Translations under genes and position numbers: made by a program | Shown here: piece after piece, positions 35,357 through 51,861 of the stretch | Numbering within the stretch: the stretch's first letter is position 1 | Layout: every line of letters starts with the position of its first letter | NCBI GenBank assembly: GCA_964507275.1 | Contig: CAZDPG010000001.1 | Span: 468,577-532,576 of the forward strand | DNA from: an uncultured Candidatus Saccharibacteria bacterium | GTDB lineage: Bacteria; Patescibacteriota; Minisyncoccia; Phycocordibacterales; Phycocordibacteraceae | Direction of reading: 5' to 3' | DNA: 64,000 bases | Notes under the pieces: generated by a model | Told to the model about the DNA's origin: nothing | Database searches by the model: none | What the model saw: only the letters and a program-made list of their open reading frames with translations

Positions 35357-35396
35357 TCTTTCGTAATCTCCCACGTCTGCCCTGCCTCAGGGACGA
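35357..35396. repeat. 40-bp perfect direct repeat (second copy 36027-36066) within a ~70-bp diverged duplication
   Basis: TCTTTCGTAATCTCCCACGTCTGCCCTGCCTCAGGGACGA occurs twice. Copy B is the 3' end of the MBL gene. Copy A is an out-of-gene remnant encoding ...VVPEAGQTWEITKESVKKI*. Confidence 0.75.
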
Positions 35397-35474: not shown

Positions 35475-35999
35475 TCATGCTATCGATTTCTTCAATATCC
35501 CATTTATGAATTCGATTTTCCGTCGATAGTACTCTCTCACACTTAGTCCAGCACTTCTTTCCTTCAACTTCCGATATGCATCCAAATCATCAGGATGATT
35601 CTTCAGATGAGTTTCAAAGGCGATACTCCTGAGCCAGTCATCACTGCTCTCAGTGATTAGGAATACATCCGCGTGTTTACCATCCACATCCGTCACGAAT
35701 CGAGCTCTCCGCAAAGGATACGTACTTCGCGGCTCTCCGAACAGCTCTTTCAATAATTCGAGAAACGCATCAAATTTTTCCATTGGTATGGGCACATAAA
35801 TATCAATTTCATCTTGTCCTGAAATCCCTAGGCTCGCCGCACCATGATGTTCAACTGGCACATACGCGCCAAGCGCTGACCGAATTCGTTCTTTAACAAA
35901 AATGAATTTCTCTTCTGCAGTTTGATCAAACGGAACGATTGAGATTGTGTCTGTATCGGAAAGATGATCTACCCACTTCTGCTGTTCGGACGTCAACAT
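35475..35999 (-). CDS. GrpB/UPF0157-family protein (nucleotidyltransferase-like)
   Basis: EHHGAASLGISGQDEIDIYV matches the GrpB HxGSTxxxGxxAKPxIDI region. Lower GC. Start taken at MLTSEQ to avoid overlap with the MBL gene. Confidence 0.7.
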   Translation of the reverse strand: MLTSEQQKWVDHLSDTDTISIVPFDQTAEEKFIFVKERIRSALGAYVPVEHHGAASLGISGQDEIDIYVPIPMEKFDAFLELLKELFGEPRSTYPLRRARFVTDVDGKHADVFLITESSDDWLRSIAFETHLKNHPDDLDAYRKLKERSAGLSVREYYRRKIEFINGILKKSIA

Positions 36000-36007
36000 C
36001 TGAATAT

Positions 36008-37399
36008 TTAGACCTTCTTCACCGATTCTTTCGTAATCTCCCACGTCTGCCCTGCCTCAGGGACGATGGCAGAGCCGCCGAGGTAGTCGTGGATGCGCTG
36101 GGCGAGGAATCGTTCGGCAGAAGGCTCGCCATGAGCTGTGAAGATGGCTTTCGTCCGTTTATCGGCAAGCGCTGCTTCGGCAAATGCGAGGAGCCCGTCG
36201 CGATCGGCATGGGCTGACCAGCCTTCAAGTTTCTCTATCTTCGCCTTTATCTTTACTTCAGCACCGGCGATACGCACACTCGATGCGCCCTCCATCATGC
36301 GTCGCCCCGGCGTGCCAGGGGCCTGGTAGCCGACCATAAAGAGCGTGGTGGCGGGGTCGGGCAGATAGCGTGTCTCCCAGCGACCGATGCGGCCGCCATG
36401 ACTCATCCCCGCGCCGGCGATGATGATTTTCGGCCCCGGTACCTTCTCTATCGCCATCGACTCTTCGCTTGAAAGTGTCTGTTTCAAGAATGGGAATTCG
36501 AAAATACTCCCTTCTCGCCTCATCTCATCCTCTGTCTCTTTTTTGAAGTATGTCATCCCCCACTTCTCGTACACTGCAGTCACATGTATGGCGAGTGGTG
36601 AATCGAGAAAGACGGGAACCTTCGGCAGATCTCCTGCGTCAAAGAAGTTGGAGAGCTCGTAGAGCATGAGCTGAGTGCGTTCGACCGAGAAAGCGGGAAT
36701 GAGGATTGTACCTCCTCTTGCTATGGCTCGCTTCATCTCTTCAAGCAAAAGAGGTCCGCGATTTTCTTGATTCGGGTGCTGTTTGTCTCCGTACGTGCTC
36801 TCCATCACAAGCGCATCAGCATCCGGCACTGGCTCCCAGTCAGGGAGAAGCGGCGAAGGAGAGTTACCGATGTCGCCGGTAAATGCGACACTCGTCCCTT
36901 CCTCGTCTCTGATGCGCACACTCGCCGAGCCGAGGATGTGACCCGTGTTGCGCAAGTAGGCCGAGAGCCCGGGCGCGACCTCTTTCTCCGTATGATATTC
37001 GAGCGTCTCGACGAGCGAGAAGGCAGTCTCGACATCGTTGATGTCGTATAAAGGAAGCCTCCCTAGACGCCCAGCTTCTTCTGCGAGGATGTGCGAGGAA
37101 TCGAGCAGGATAAGAGCTGCGAGGTCCCGCGTTGCTGGCGTCATGAATATCTTTCCACGGAAGCCATCCCGCACAAGCTTCGGTATGCGACCGACATGGT
37201 CGAGGTGAGAATGCGTCACGATAAGAGCGTCAATCGTTGTGACGTCATACGGGAACGGCCCGTACATGCACTCTTCGCAGAAGTCACCTCCCTGCTCGAT
37301 ACCGCAATCAACAAGAATCCTTCCCTTCGCTCCGGTGATTAAAAAGTTTGAGCCGGTCACCTTGCCTGCTCCGCCGTAGAAACCGAGTCGTAATGCCAT
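36008..37399 (-). CDS. MBL-fold beta-CASP RNA-metabolising hydrolase
   Basis: 463 aa. HSHLDHVG (HxHxDH) and beta-CASP motifs. Typical bacterial MBL fold metallo-hydrolase RNA specificity domain protein. Confidence 0.85.
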   Translation of the reverse strand: MALRLGFYGGAGKVTGSNFLITGAKGRILVDCGIEQGGDFCEECMYGPFPYDVTTIDALIVTHSHLDHVGRIPKLVRDGFRGKIFMTPATRDLAALILLDSSHILAEEAGRLGRLPLYDINDVETAFSLVETLEYHTEKEVAPGLSAYLRNTGHILGSASVRIRDEEGTSVAFTGDIGNSPSPLLPDWEPVPDADALVMESTYGDKQHPNQENRGPLLLEEMKRAIARGGTILIPAFSVERTQLMLYELSNFFDAGDLPKVPVFLDSPLAIHVTAVYEKWGMTYFKKETEDEMRREGSIFEFPFLKQTLSSEESMAIEKVPGPKIIIAGAGMSHGGRIGRWETRYLPDPATTLFMVGYQAPGTPGRRMMEGASSVRIAGAEVKIKAKIEKLEGWSAHADRDGLLAFAEAALADKRTKAIFTAHGEPSAERFLAQRIHDYLGGSAIVPEAGQTWEITKESVKKV

Positions 37400-37436
37400 G
37401 TAGCAACTTTACCATGGAGCTATTGCTACTAAGCGC

Positions 37437-37465
37437 AAAAATCCCGTCTTTTTGAGACGGGATTT
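37437..37465. terminator. Hairpin with flanking T/A runs (bidirectional terminator-like)
   Basis: AAAATCCCGTC-TTTTTGA-GACGGGATTTT. Same family as the hairpins at 37655-37679 and 51253-51273. Confidence 0.5.
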
Positions 37466-37470
37466 TTGCG

Positions 37471-37684
37471 GAACTGTCCTCTCCGGCAACTTTATTGTGC
37501 CAGGTGGGATAAACAACGGCGGCTATCGGATTCCTTCACAGGCTTCACCAAGCACGTCTTAATAGTTATTCTCCCTTGTAGGAAGTAAGTTGCGTTTTTA
37601 AGAACAGCTCCACTTACTAGTATACCTGCTCCCCGGAGTGGGCGTGTGGAAAACAAAAATCCCGCCATGAGCGGGATTTTCTGT
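37471..37684 (+). ncRNA. Candidate small RNA (terminator-bounded intergenic transcript), paralog of 51247-51431
   Basis: Bounded upstream by a hairpin+T run and downstream by the AAAATCCCGC-CATGA-GCGGGATTTT terminator. Shares CTGTCC...TATTGTGCCAGGT 5' motif with the second locus. Ends can pair (CTCCGG/CCGGAG). Confidence 0.3.
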
Positions 37685-37703: not shown

Positions 37704-38180
37704 CTAGAACGCCTCTTCGGCGCTGATGAAGTCGAAATCATTACGCTTGTATCCGAAGAGCTCATCTCCTTTGAAGAAGCGTTCTACTTCCACAATCCCA
37801 TTCTCGATACTGTCAGATGCGTGGACAAGATTCGATTGTGTCGAGAGCGAGAGGTCGCCGCGGATGGTACCTGCTGCGCCTTCGTAGGCTTTCGTCGGCC
37901 CCACGATAAGTCGAGTTGCGGCAACCGCATTTATACCCGAAAGCGCCAGCACCACCACCGGCGACGTCTTCATGAACGTCTTGATGCCGGAGAAGAACGG
38001 CTTGTCCTTGATGTGTGCATAGTGCGCTTCAAGGAGTGCGTCCTCGAGCTCAATCATTTTCATGCCTACAATCCTCAGCCCTTTGCGTTCGAAGCGGCCA
38101 ATAACCTCTCCCATGAGTCCGCGATGCACTGCGTCCGGCTTCAATATAATGAGTGTCTTTTCTTCTTTCGGATGTGCCAT
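37704..38180 (-). CDS. ndk: Nucleoside diphosphate kinase
   Basis: LIILKPDAVHRGL...NAVHASDS are NDK motifs. Confidence 0.93.
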   Translation of the reverse strand: MAHPKEEKTLIILKPDAVHRGLMGEVIGRFERKGLRIVGMKMIELEDALLEAHYAHIKDKPFFSGIKTFMKTSPVVVLALSGINAVAATRLIVGPTKAYEGAAGTIRGDLSLSTQSNLVHASDSIENGIVEVERFFKGDELFGYKRNDFDFISAEEAF

Positions 38181-39553: not shown

Positions 39554-39621
39554 CTGCCCACTCTAGCATCACAACACAAAACACGCGACAGCAGAGCTGT
39601 CGCGTGTTTTGTGTTGTGAAA

Positions 39622-48412: not shown

Positions 48413-48560
48413 GGTTTCTCCTTCAGAGAGTGTGCCGTTTACACGGCGGATTGAGATGTTTTTGTGCTTCTATTCCTCGAGCATATGAACACAGGATGTT
48501 GTAAAAAGCAAAACTCGCGACCATAAGGTCGCGAGTTTTGCTTGAATCGTGAAATGAGTC

Positions 48561-50512: not shown

Positions 50513-51127
50513 TTATGCAGACACGACTTCGAGCAGCGTGCCGCGGCGGCCCGGTACGGCACCCGAGATGACGATATGGCCTGCCTTCGCATCGACCGCG
50601 AGGACCTTGAGGTTCGTGACGGTTACCCGGTCCGTACCCATACGGCCGGCCATCTTCTTTCCCTTCACGACACGACCGCCAGCGCGACCGCCTGAACCGC
50701 CGATAGAACCAGGGGAGCGCTCGGTGTGCTTCTGACCGTGACTGCGCGGACCGCCATGGAAACCGTGGCGCTTCACGACGCCTGAGAAGCCCTTACCCTT
50801 GGAAAGGCCTGAGACACGTACGACATCACCGACTGCAAAAGTCGATACGTCGATAACCGCTCCCTCCTCCACGCCTTCTGCGCCACGGAATTCGCGGAGC
50901 GCTTCAAAGCCCTTGCCGTCCGTGTGACCGAGGACCGCCTTACTCACGTTCTTCGTCTTGCGAGAACCCATACCGACCTGGACAGCTGCATAGCCGTCCT
51001 TCCCCGTCTCAGTCTTCACCTGCGTGACCGTCACCGGAGCGACATTCAGAATCGTACCTGCATAGGCACGACCATCATCCGCGAAGACGCGGATCATATT
51101 CTCTTTGGTGGCGAGGATGAATTTCAT
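50513..51127 (-). CDS. rplC: 50S ribosomal protein L3
   Basis: MKFILATKENM...GKGFSGVVKRHGFHGG is canonical L3. Confidence 0.93.
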   Translation of the reverse strand: MKFILATKENMIRVFADDGRAYAGTILNVAPVTVTQVKTETGKDGYAAVQVGMGSRKTKNVSKAVLGHTDGKGFEALREFRGAEGVEEGAVIDVSTFAVGDVVRVSGLSKGKGFSGVVKRHGFHGGPRSHGQKHTERSPGSIGGSGGRAGGRVVKGKKMAGRMGTDRVTVTNLKVLAVDAKAGHIVISGAVPGRRGTLLEVVSA

Positions 51128-51246
51128 TTTTTAAAGCAAAACGCGCGACAGCAAATCGCGTCGCGCGAGTTGCCATAGGTCCGAGCTGACTGCAGCTCGT
51201 ACGTAGCTTTAGGAGCACTCTACACGAACCCAGAAAAAGATGCAAG

Positions 51247-51431
51247 AAACACAAAATCCCGCTAAGCGGGATTGTTTCGTGAAAGATCAATAGGGAGCGA
51301 AGGCCTCCGAGGGTCGTGTGCGCATCTGCCTTGAGCGAGAGCCCGTCGACTGGGATGGCACAAAGTGGCGCCTGAAGCACACACGAATCCCCGGAGGTTA
51401 CCTGGCACAATAGCATGCTCGGACAGAAAAA
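51247..51431 (-). ncRNA. Candidate small RNA or leader element between rpsJ terminator and rplC, paralog of 37471-37684
   Basis: On the minus strand: rpsJ terminator, TTTTTCTGTCC, GCTATTGTGCCAGGT, about 130 nt, then terminator AATCCCGC-TTA-GCGGGATTTTG. Same bounding architecture and motifs as the 37.5-kb locus. Confidence 0.3.
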
Positions 51432-51461
51432 CACACAACCGCCTTTACGGGCGGTTGTGTG
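51432..51461 (-). terminator. Intrinsic terminator after rpsJ
   Basis: Minus strand: CACACAACCGCC-loop-GGCGGTTGTGTG followed by TTTTTCTG. Confidence 0.55.
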
Positions 51462-51480
51462 AGCTGTCTTATGGCGATAG

Positions 51481-51861
51481 CTAGACCATCTTGACGTCGA
51501 TCGTCACTCCACTTGGGAGATTGAGGTTCGTGAGGGCCTCTATCACCTTCGGTGAAGGATTCATGATGTCGATGAGGCGCTTATGGATGCGCATTTCGAA
51601 CTGTTCGCGAGCGTCTTTGTGGACGAACGTCGAACGGTTCACTGTCCAACGCTTGATCTCAGTCGGGAGCGGCACGGGGCCGACGACGACAGCATCGAAG
51701 CGGGCTGCAGTATCCATAATCTGCTTCACCGAGAGATCAAGAATCTTGTGCTCATAGGCACGGACGCGGATACGGAGCTTGTGCTCCACCGGAGCAGCTG
51801 TCGCAGCTGCCTTCTTCGAAACACGTTTTGCTTTTGGCTTTGTCTCCGTCTCTGTTTCCAT
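51481..51861 (-). CDS. rpsJ: 30S ribosomal protein S10 (Lys/Ala-rich N-terminal extension)
   Basis: KLRIRVRAYEHKILD...SPHVDKDSREQFE pattern. About 25-aa N-extension. Confidence 0.9.
   Translation of the reverse strand: METETETKPKAKRVSKKAAATAAPVEHKLRIRVRAYEHKILDLSVKQIMDTAARFDAVVVGPVPLPTEIKRWTVNRSTFVHKDAREQFEMRIHKRLIDIMNPSPKVIEALTNLNLPSGVTIDVKMV

Follow-up and report, generated by a model that had tools for sequence, protein, structure and literature searches.

A conserved, structured non-coding RNA gene downstream of ndk in Kaiserbacteria-like bacteria of the candidate phyla radiation

Introduction

Several classes of bacterial RNA can be compared with the element described here, a folded RNA gene on the minus strand of a 64,000-nt stretch of DNA (the window; positions 468,577 to 532,576 of contig CAZDPG010000001.1, assembly GCA_964507275.1), where it lies in the spacer between ndk and a gene for a beta-CASP/MBL protein. 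6S RNA (ssrS; RF00013) is likewise a stand-alone, promoted bacterial RNA of approximately 150-190 nt, and both RNAs form a long irregular rod that is closed by the 5' and 3' ends and contains a conserved interior loop region. The new RNA differs in that it has no covariance-model similarity to 6S RNA, its interior loop is small, with part of it closed by P2b, a short helix, it is conserved in sequence (helix P2 and the GGG/CCCAC words) and not in shape alone, and it ends at an intrinsic terminator. Bacterial signal recognition particle (SRP) RNA (4.5S; RF00169/RF01854) shares with it the hairpin rod, the apical GNRA tetraloop, conserved internal loops near the tip and a gene in the vicinity of secY. 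However, the new RNA lacks the domain IV signature of SRP RNA (an AGG/AGCA symmetric loop and an ACCA asymmetric loop) as well as any Rfam match, allows insertions and non-GNRA loops at its tip and is missing at the locus in some relatives.

Orphan classes of structured non-coding RNA (ncRNA) such as the raiA motif (PMC10861870, PMC11706538) and OLE RNA are similarly lineage-restricted and highly structured, contain many conserved unpaired nucleotides and were defined by covariation and gene neighbourhood, with their function unknown at discovery. In comparison, the new RNA has another sequence and fold, is smaller (approximately 141 nt) and unbranched and is limited, as far as seen, to Kaiserbacteria-like bacteria of the candidate phyla radiation (CPR). 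Terminator-ended, trans-acting small RNAs (sRNAs) of model bacteria have in common with it an own promoter, a short transcript and a Rho-independent 3' terminator, but base-pairing sRNAs carry one short conserved single-stranded seed, whereas the new RNA consists of an extended, covarying and almost fully structured body with several conserved modules. CPR bacteria represent a large share of bacterial diversity and possess tiny genomes with few regulators. To our knowledge, almost nothing is known about their ncRNAs, and no account of ncRNAs in Kaiserbacteria or other Patescibacteria was found in the literature searched.

Results

A folded RNA gene between ndk and the beta-CASP gene

On comparative evidence, the spacer between ndk and the beta-CASP/MBL gene (locus A) holds a strongly conserved, folded ncRNA gene of approximately 140 nt on the minus strand. 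Homologous loci show the segment 37436-37625 (minus strand) to be an independent, single-copy, structured ncRNA gene of Kaiserbacteria-like CPR bacteria, as judged from their genome sequences. With more than 110 examples, and absent from both Rfam 15 and the literature searched, the RNA family is apparently undescribed. The elements of the locus are listed in the order of the minus strand.

37655-37681, minus strand: intrinsic (bidirectional) terminator of ndk, GAAAAUCCCGC-UCAUG-GCGGGAUUUUU followed by GUUUU, which closes the secY-adk-map-ndk operon
37619-37625, minus strand: -10 box of the RNA gene, GTATACT, 7 nt ahead of the first RNA base G37611
37470-37611, minus strand: structured core of 142 nt (141 model positions), 5' GGAGC...GUUCC 3', as matched by the R1 model
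37600-37611, minus strand: 5' strand of P1, GGAGCUGUUCUU, partner of 37470-37481
37587-37593, minus strand: 5' strand of P2, GCAACUU, partner of AAGUUGC at 37486-37492
37506-37575, minus strand: distal arm with P4 (GGG:CCC and a covarying extension), P5, a conserved internal loop, P6 and a GUGA tetraloop
37524-37550, minus strand: distal internal loop flanking P6, with 5' UGGUGAA (37550-37544) opposite 3' AUCCGAnA (37531-37524)
37539-37536, minus strand: GUGA tetraloop at the apex of the distal arm
37493-37505, minus strand: junction J4/2, ACCUGGCACAAUA
37470-37481, minus strand: 3' strand of P1, GAGGACAGUUCC, partner of 37600-37611
37436-37466, minus strand: intrinsic terminator of the RNA gene, AAAAUCCCGUCUC-AAAAA-GACGGGAUUUUU (hairpin at 37438-37466)
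37406-37414, minus strand: extended -10 box TGGTAAAGT of the beta-CASP/MBL gene, 6 nt ahead of its ATG (37399)

The predicted transcript extends from 37611 to approximately 37436 (about 176 nt), and we infer that it is made as a discrete molecule. Its fold is rod-shaped and comprises, in order, P1 (12 bp), an internal loop, P2, a junction (GGG...CCCACnU), P4-P5, a loop and P6 with a GNRA cap, and the terminator follows directly 3' of P1.

Two sets of relatives were used for comparison. A search with ribosomal protein L5 yielded 80 loci (77-91% identity) from metagenome-assembled genomes named Candidatus Kaiserbacteria, Paceibacterota, Parcubacteria or Patescibacteria, which assigns the window to a Kaiserbacteria-like (Patescibacteria/CPR) genome, and a pattern of invariant words yielded over 120 stretches in metagenome contigs, 80 of which were taken for model testing. 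Related loci compared with the window carry labels of the form L###. The covariance model R1 (141 positions, 43 pairs) was built from a seed of 14 homologues. Its sole match in the window is 37470-37611 on the minus strand (132.5 bits, E 5e-27). R1 matched 44 of the 80 genome loci, with one copy each on the gene strand, and confirmed 71 of the 80 metagenome stretches. The metagenome copies have ndk upstream in all cases and the MBL gene downstream wherever the contig extends that far. In the 115 related loci with a match, the RNA gene is present in one copy per locus, always after ndk and on the ndk/MBL strand. The spacers of relatives can be aligned across approximately 190 nt, and no conserved stop positions or reading frame emerged from the homologue comparison on either strand. 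A small open reading frame (ORF) was thus ruled out for both strands, as stops and frames are unconserved.

The RNA was assigned to the minus strand on four grounds: the covariance-model match, the -10 box, the many G.U pairs of the fold, for which the plus strand would have A.C mismatches, and the fold z-scores (-4.5, compared to -2.0 for the plus strand). The first-pass annotation of this DNA had instead proposed an sRNA of about 200 nt on the plus strand (37466-37684), which would start after the left hairpin, end at the AAAATCCCGC terminator and have a paralogue at 51247-51431 (minus strand). Of this proposal, a discrete, terminator-bounded small-RNA gene that matches no known family is supported, and the two strong hairpins with T-runs on which it relied are perfect hairpins with flanking A/T runs at 37438-37466 and 37655-37681. 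As these hairpins are bidirectional, the right one could end plus-strand transcription. That hairpin (37681-37655) is, however, the terminator of ndk and not the boundary of the RNA, and both the conserved -10 box and all R1 matches are located on the strand of ndk and the MBL gene.

Covariation and conserved modules

The fold was evaluated in alignment A4 (genome set) and alignment A6 (metagenome set, 68 distinct sequences). In A4, 91.0% of the cells are standard-paired, compared to 45-51% if the 3' partners are slid, compensatory double changes occur in 25 of the 43 pairs, and the covariation score is 0.298 versus approximately 0.08; none of 500 shuffles reached any of the pairing or covariation measures. 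The corresponding values for A6 are 91.8% of cells paired versus 39-49%, double changes in 33 of 43 pairs and a score of 0.405 versus approximately 0.08, again with no shuffle out of 500 scoring as high. Both alignments therefore contain compensatory changes beyond the controls, as expected of a structured RNA gene, with 36-51% of the cells paired over all slid controls.

The ends of the conserved block are complementary to each other (GGAGCYGUUC with GRAYRGCUCC, and GCAACUU with AAGUUGC). Double changes were found at all 12 pairs of P1 in A6, with 96-98% of the cells paired. The columns of P1 include numerous G.U pairs in A4 (GU:13, UG:12, GU:16, UG:21, UG:14 and UG:34), which fixes the strand of the RNA, since these would turn into A.C mismatches on the plus strand. 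An earlier proposal of complementary ends, CTCTCCGG...CCGGAG, could not be maintained, as the actual closing helix is P1 (37600-37611 with 37470-37481); CCGGAG (37634-37639) is situated upstream of the promoter, outside the RNA, and is not conserved. P2 is near-invariant in sequence in all homologues, with 99% of the cells paired and six of its seven pairs constant in the 68 distinct sequences. P2 and the GGG:CCC pairs are neutral as structural evidence because they never vary, but their invariance marks a sequence-specific constraint. P5 and P6 show double changes at all pairs and have 90-96% of the cells paired.

Two regions stand out by conserved unpaired positions. Junction J4/2 has an invariant A-C-n-U after the CCC of P4, so that the CCCAC and U columns do not vary. 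The GGC of this junction can pair with GCC/GCU located 3' of P2 in most homologues, and this additional helix, P2b, is 88.6% paired compared to 16-46% when slid (third pair CG:30, UG:22 and UA:8). The distal loop contains invariant positions in the seed (G61, G62, G64, A65, A66, A79, U80, C81, C82, G83, A84 and A86) and is preserved in divergent subgroups. It is labelled here as a candidate kink-turn (K-turn) or loop-E-like element from its sequence. A K-turn proper fits poorly, given an A.A pair at -1 and, in one subgroup, a U at position 1b. The apical loop is a GNRA tetraloop in most homologues, with UUCG or pentaloops in some. Two relatives, L007 (12412-12587) and L061 (16905-17106), have 35-60 additional nt inserted into the tip of P6 (CACUUUUGACGCAAU...UUGUUUCAAAAGUGG), which form a long hairpin of their own. 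Because such insertions are tolerated, the apical tetraloop is dispensable. A P3 hairpin in the 5' junction was also considered and dropped from the model; it occurs only sporadically and competes with P2b and GGG:CCC.

Promoter, terminator and independence from the neighbouring genes

The promoter was called by comparison among relatives. Each of the 106 distinct upstream sequences has a TAnnnT hexamer at 5-8 nt (mostly 7 nt) from +1, and G-14, T-13, A-12, T-11, A-10 and T-8 are each 73-77% conserved among them. The 5' GGAGC with which the RNA begins is conserved as well. In alignment A2, the same -10 positions are at least 90% conserved or invariant. A scan of the spacer with the sigma-70 consensus returned neither a promoter nor a terminator at locus A, which is attributed to T-runs that sit inside the stems and to promoters that have no -35 box. 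Many relatives (e.g. L018, L024, L025 and L049) do have a TTGACA-like box at -27 to -21, which is not found in the window. As this box lies only 7 nt upstream of the -10 hexamer, it is too near to be a standard -35 element.

The terminator hairpin of the RNA gene keeps a constant position while its sequence is free to change, with compensatory changes, and a T-run is found downstream of the RNA in 85 of 105 distinct sequences. Six relatives (L022, L032, L074, L077, L083 and L086) have the U-tailed terminator swapped for a near-identical hairpin, GCCAAUCGCCCUGUUUC-UUCG-GAAACAGGGCGAUUGGC, with a stem of approximately 17 bp and no U-run; their RNA cores belong to different subgroups.

On its upstream side, the RNA gene always follows ndk directly; in the 107 loci compared, the gap has a median of 70 nt and is never shorter than 19 nt. 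This arrangement could reflect a 3'-terminal cis element of the secY-adk-map-ndk operon that serves in stability or processing or gives rise to an sRNA from the 3' untranslated region, and read-through from the operon must enter the RNA at the 23 of 107 loci for which no terminator was detected in between. However, a terminator-like hairpin separates the ndk stop from the RNA start in the other 84 loci (a strong one in the window), all 106 sequences have a -10 box for the RNA itself at a constant distance, and two types of ndk (approximately 31% and 80% identical to that of the window) precede the same RNA. A 3' element of the operon is consequently considered very unlikely.

On the downstream side, the strand and the order of structured domain, terminator and gene are those of a classical attenuator, and the RNA is always found upstream of the MBL gene. 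The RNA could thus be a cis-regulatory 5' leader of the beta-CASP/MBL gene, either a riboswitch or a protein-responsive attenuator, with the terminator at 37436-37466 as its expression platform. Against such a leader, a TA[C/G/A]A[G/T]T box is conserved among relatives between the terminator and the MBL gene, 6-7 nt ahead of the ATG, and the position of this -10 box implies that the MBL mRNA is leaderless and independent of the RNA gene. In L052, from which the RNA module is absent, the MBL promoter is retained: the ndk terminator is followed by TGATACAGT, 7 nt and the ATG. In a divergent clade (MBL approximately 60% identical), a gene for a membrane protein of about 120 amino acids with its own TGnTAnAnT box intervenes between the RNA terminator and the MBL gene. 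Furthermore, the terminator is free to vary in sequence, whereas the adjacent 3' strand of P1 is constrained within a stable 12-bp helix, and no conserved anti-terminator or mutually exclusive pairing is visible in the homologue alignments. Owing to the terminators, the -10 box of the MBL gene, the intervening gene and the arrangement in L052, a cis-regulatory leader is judged quite improbable. The same TGnTAnAnT extended -10 box occurs 6-7 nt before the ATG of MBL and small membrane-protein genes in L052, L104, L114, L122 and others, with no -35 box visible, and genes in this clade appear from their sequences to be leaderless and transcribed from TGnTAnAnT promoters. Taken together, the hairpins on the ndk side, the separate -10 box of the MBL gene, the intervening gene and the loci without the RNA identify the RNA gene as a discrete module.

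Comparison with known RNA families

At the gathering threshold, Rfam 15 detected only tRNA-Ser in the whole window and no family in 126 kb of nine related loci. Relaxing the threshold to E<=10 produced only terminator-like noise at locus A, at a second locus (locus B, see below) and at 17 homologous loci; 6S, SRP, Y RNA, riboswitch and ribosomal-leader models did not match the locus or the 17 homologous loci. ARAGORN likewise reported only tRNA-Ser in the window. These scans answer the first-pass annotation, which had recommended a covariance-model search, and agree with its observation that SRP, tRNA and RNase P motifs are missing from the locus. A likeness to 5S rRNA (the words CCCACCUG) was judged coincidental, with no match to the Rfam 5S model. 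A T-box-like reading, in which UGGC would pair with the tRNA 3' end, was rejected as UGG is variable (UAG, UAA and UUA occur). A search within the window for targets complementary to the conserved junction gave matches at chance level only.

Several features of the RNA recall 6S RNA. The RNA is rod-shaped with paired 5' and 3' ends and a total transcript length of about 176 nt; rod and closing stem are backed by covariation, and the strongly promoted, stand-alone gene is placed at the end of a ribosomal-protein cluster. A 6S-like RNA would mimic an open promoter by means of its interior loops, thereby sequester the housekeeping RNA polymerase holoenzyme and be released upon synthesis of a product RNA, for which the 5' side of the junction and of P2 would serve as the template. 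In agreement with this, the central junction would measure 11 x 13 nt if P2b were open, its 5' side is pyrimidine-rich and G-poor, its 3' strand contains ...AGAUAAAGU..., which resembles the TGnTAnAnT extended -10 box of the clade, and displacement of P2 could allow GGCAA...UUGCY of the 3' strand to fold back on itself as a hairpin. Nevertheless, RF00013 and related 6S models did not match any of 18 homologues even at E<=10. The junction is partly closed by P2b, the loop between P1 and P2 closes into a helix in a U-rich variant, P2 is conserved in sequence and not in structure alone, and the -10-like words are mostly contained within paired P2. Moreover, the RNA is absent at the locus in L043, L052 and L073. 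A 6S-like RNA is thus regarded as rather unlikely.

The second candidate, a divergent SRP (4.5S) RNA, is suggested by the rod, the apical GNRA loop, the conserved loops near the tip and the position near secY. Domain IV of SRP RNA combines a GNAR tetraloop on a short closing helix with two further loops, one symmetric (5' AGG / 3' AGCA) and the other asymmetric, and the tip of E. coli 4.5S RNA reads GGUCAGGUCC-GGAA-GGAAGCAGCC. The tip of the new RNA, GGUGAAnnCC-GNRA-GGnnAUCCGAnAGCC, matches the latter in the spacing of its 5' side. However, the conserved AGG/AGCA symmetric loop is absent, with AUCCGAnA on the 3' side instead, the small and large bacterial SRP models did not match at E<=10, some homologues have UUCG loops, pentaloops or large insertions at the tip, and three or four relatives do not have the RNA at the locus. 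An SRP RNA is therefore deemed extremely unlikely.

The shared 13-mer and the hairpins of the window

The paralogy proposed in the first-pass annotation was based on a common 5' motif and a common family of hairpins. The 13-mer TATTGTGCCAGGT does recur in the window, exactly twice, at 37493-37505 (plus strand) and 51400-51412 (minus strand). Its reverse complement at locus A is exactly junction J4/2, ACCUGGCACAAUA, and at locus B the 13-mer belongs to the extended -10 box TGcTATTGT and the start region, so that a common 5' motif is not given. The spacing CTGTCC-N13 to the motif applies to locus A; at locus B it is N8. The two loci could not be aligned pairwise outside the 13-mer, and R1, which scores 132.5 bits at locus A, did not exceed 6.8 bits anywhere in 50900-51800 with the filters off. 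In total, the window contains 160 different segments of 13 nt or longer that are repeated (both orientations counted), and approximately 70 matching pairs are expected in shuffles. The shared 13-mer is therefore not beyond chance. Its TATTGT is the -10 box of locus B, for which relatives have TGATATTCT, TGCTTTACT or TGATACACT and thus retain a TGnTAnnnT -10 box of different sequence at this site. Despite the exact 13-mer and the bidirectional hairpins, there is hardly any likelihood of a plus-strand sRNA with a paralogue at locus B.

A third hairpin, AATCCCGC-TTA-GCGGGATT, is present at 51255-51273 as described earlier. The CTGTC that had been placed after it follows the upstream terminator at 51432-51461, a hairpin that starts with ACAATCCCGC and not with AAAATCCCGC. 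The supposed hairpin family corresponds to a generic style of bidirectional terminators:

19103, 25918, 34820, 37438, 37655, 39577, 48508, 51255, 51432, 53912 and 56547: strong terminators of the window, with a common A-tract/GC-stem/T-tract plan

Three of the strong terminators happen to start with ATCCCG. Since this plan is common to all of them and since many different stems are found at the orthologous terminator position among relatives, the hairpins represent a terminator style and not a repeat family. A dispersed palindromic repeat of the REP-like or MITE-like type without RNA function would account for similar-looking hairpins at two loci and for the shared 13-mer, and a repeat unit without conserved structure had been named as the finding that would overturn an RNA gene. 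It is excluded because there is just one copy in the 64-kb window and one in each related locus that has the RNA, invariably at the orthologous site, and because compensatory changes are strong, with the hairpins explained as generic terminators; its likelihood is considered negligible.

Locus B and further candidate RNA elements

Judged from its sequence, locus B (51247-51415, minus strand) is a different and unrelated small-RNA candidate between rpsJ and rplC. The following elements were recognized in this region and elsewhere in the ribosomal-protein operon.

51461-51432, minus strand: rpsJ terminator
51415-51407, minus strand: extended -10 box of locus B, TGcTATTGT
51273-51255, minus strand: terminator of locus B
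51128-51246, minus strand: promoter and leader of the rplC (L3-L4-L23...) operon, with -35 and extended -10 elements, CTTGCAT-N17-GTGTAGAGT
39577-39611: perfect long hairpin with a U-run in the secY/adk spacer
48508-48541: perfect long hairpin with a U-run after rplB

The candidate RNA of locus B is a hairpin of approximately 95 nt whose stem is wholly different in sequence yet paired in L042, L014 and L063, with a conserved apical AGUCAGUCGAC and a 3' tail UUCGCYC. It is present in a subset of relatives only, and no Rfam match was obtained (E<=10). The rpsJ-rplC spacer ranges from 147 to 2384 nt among relatives, and this junction is a hot spot: in many of them (L008-L086), an insertion of 1-2.4 kb separates the rpsJ terminator from the rplC promoter.

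The rplC leader is structured, measures about 85 nt and ends in a terminator-like hairpin CGCGCGACGCGAUUUGCUGUCGCGCG with a U-run (51167-51142) before the rplC ATG. Promoter and leader are conserved in 47 related loci and have no Rfam match. The leader is a candidate ribosomal-protein autoregulatory attenuator that would be placed before rplC rather than rpsJ. The hairpins at 39577-39611 and 48508-48541 share with the rplC leader hairpin the words CGCGAC...GUCGCG...UUUUG(C) and may be internal attenuators or processing sites. The window thus yields two further unannotated RNA elements beside the ndk-downstream RNA.

Genomic surroundings of the RNA gene

The genes that flank the RNA gene are the following.

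36008-37399, minus strand: beta-CASP/MBL gene
37704-38180, minus strand: ndk, of the 158-amino-acid type

Positions 38-53 kb of the window contain, on the minus strand, the order tuf-rpsJ-rplC-rplD...rplE...secY-adk-map-ndk. With ndk as the last gene of the secY-adk-map-ndk operon, the RNA locus marks the end of the ribosomal-protein/secY cluster. In NCBIfam, the beta-CASP protein comes closest to Cas14, the beta-CASP nuclease of type VII CRISPR systems, with a score far under the cutoff. The order map-ndk-spacer-MBL is preserved in related loci, mostly with a spacer of 230-500 nt. The exact ndk protein of the window was found on 24 contigs, all with an identical spacer and hence no variation.

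Two types of ndk occupy the same slot. The type of the window is common to few relatives (77-89% identity), and the majority have a longer type that is only about 31% identical to it; the same RNA is found downstream of both. A perfect direct repeat of 40 nt (35357-35396 and 36027-36066) flanks a GrpB-like ORF (35475-36044) downstream of the MBL gene and looks like the footprint of a duplication or insertion. Further direct repeats are a perfect one of 95 nt (1235-1329 and 1704-1798, 469 nt apart) and a pair of 31 nt and 27 nt (14313/14761 and 14395/14843, spaced 448 nt), which are probably internal repeats of coding sequences.

Discussion

We consider it probable that the RNA is a folded, protein-binding RNA that works in trans. 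A transcript of about 176 nt would be released as a discrete molecule and act in trans as a folded RNA, in which two modules of conserved unpaired or invariant positions, the central junction and the distal loop, would provide the binding surfaces for at least one protein partner. Such an RNA would form a ribonucleoprotein (RNP) or serve as a decoy-type RNA, and would be neither a base-pairing sRNA with a single seed nor a cis-regulatory leader. Its most specific form, a 6S-like decoy of RNA polymerase, is held to be rather unlikely. Protein binding is proposed because conservation extends over an invariant helix, the junction as well as the distal loop, because the tip tolerates long insertions, and because no seed-type complementarity was found in the window.

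Several points weigh against this proposal. In the present alignment, the interior of P4 reaches just 68-83% pairing, so that the model would have to be refined in places. The ends and the abundance of the transcript are deduced solely from sequence, and the protein-binding mechanism is suggested by the pattern of conservation. The RNA module is missing at the locus in L043, L052 and L073, even though ndk and the MBL gene are kept, and with three or four related genomes that have no RNA at this position the RNA must be either dispensable or relocated. Finally, the constant synteny ndk-RNA-(x)-beta-CASP, seen in over 110 loci, could reflect a functional tie to the neighbouring gene. The genomes all come from a single clade in which gene order is conserved, so that inheritance and function cannot be told apart by synteny.

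A trans-acting, protein-binding RNA could also be imagined as the dedicated partner of a neighbouring housekeeping enzyme system specific to the reduced genomes of these CPR bacteria, a more specific proposal that we put forward tentatively and hold to be possible rather than probable. The RNA would then be either a cofactor or regulator of the beta-CASP ribonuclease or a CPR-specific functional replacement of 6S RNA, the latter being tuned to polymerases that use extended -10 promoters without a -35 box and to leaderless mRNAs. If true, either version would define a new class of RNP and go beyond a new sequence family.

The RNA provides a concrete, synthesizable target of 141 nt for pull-downs, RNA polymerase binding tests and structural work, and the covariance model can be used for the annotation of the genomes of these CPR bacteria.

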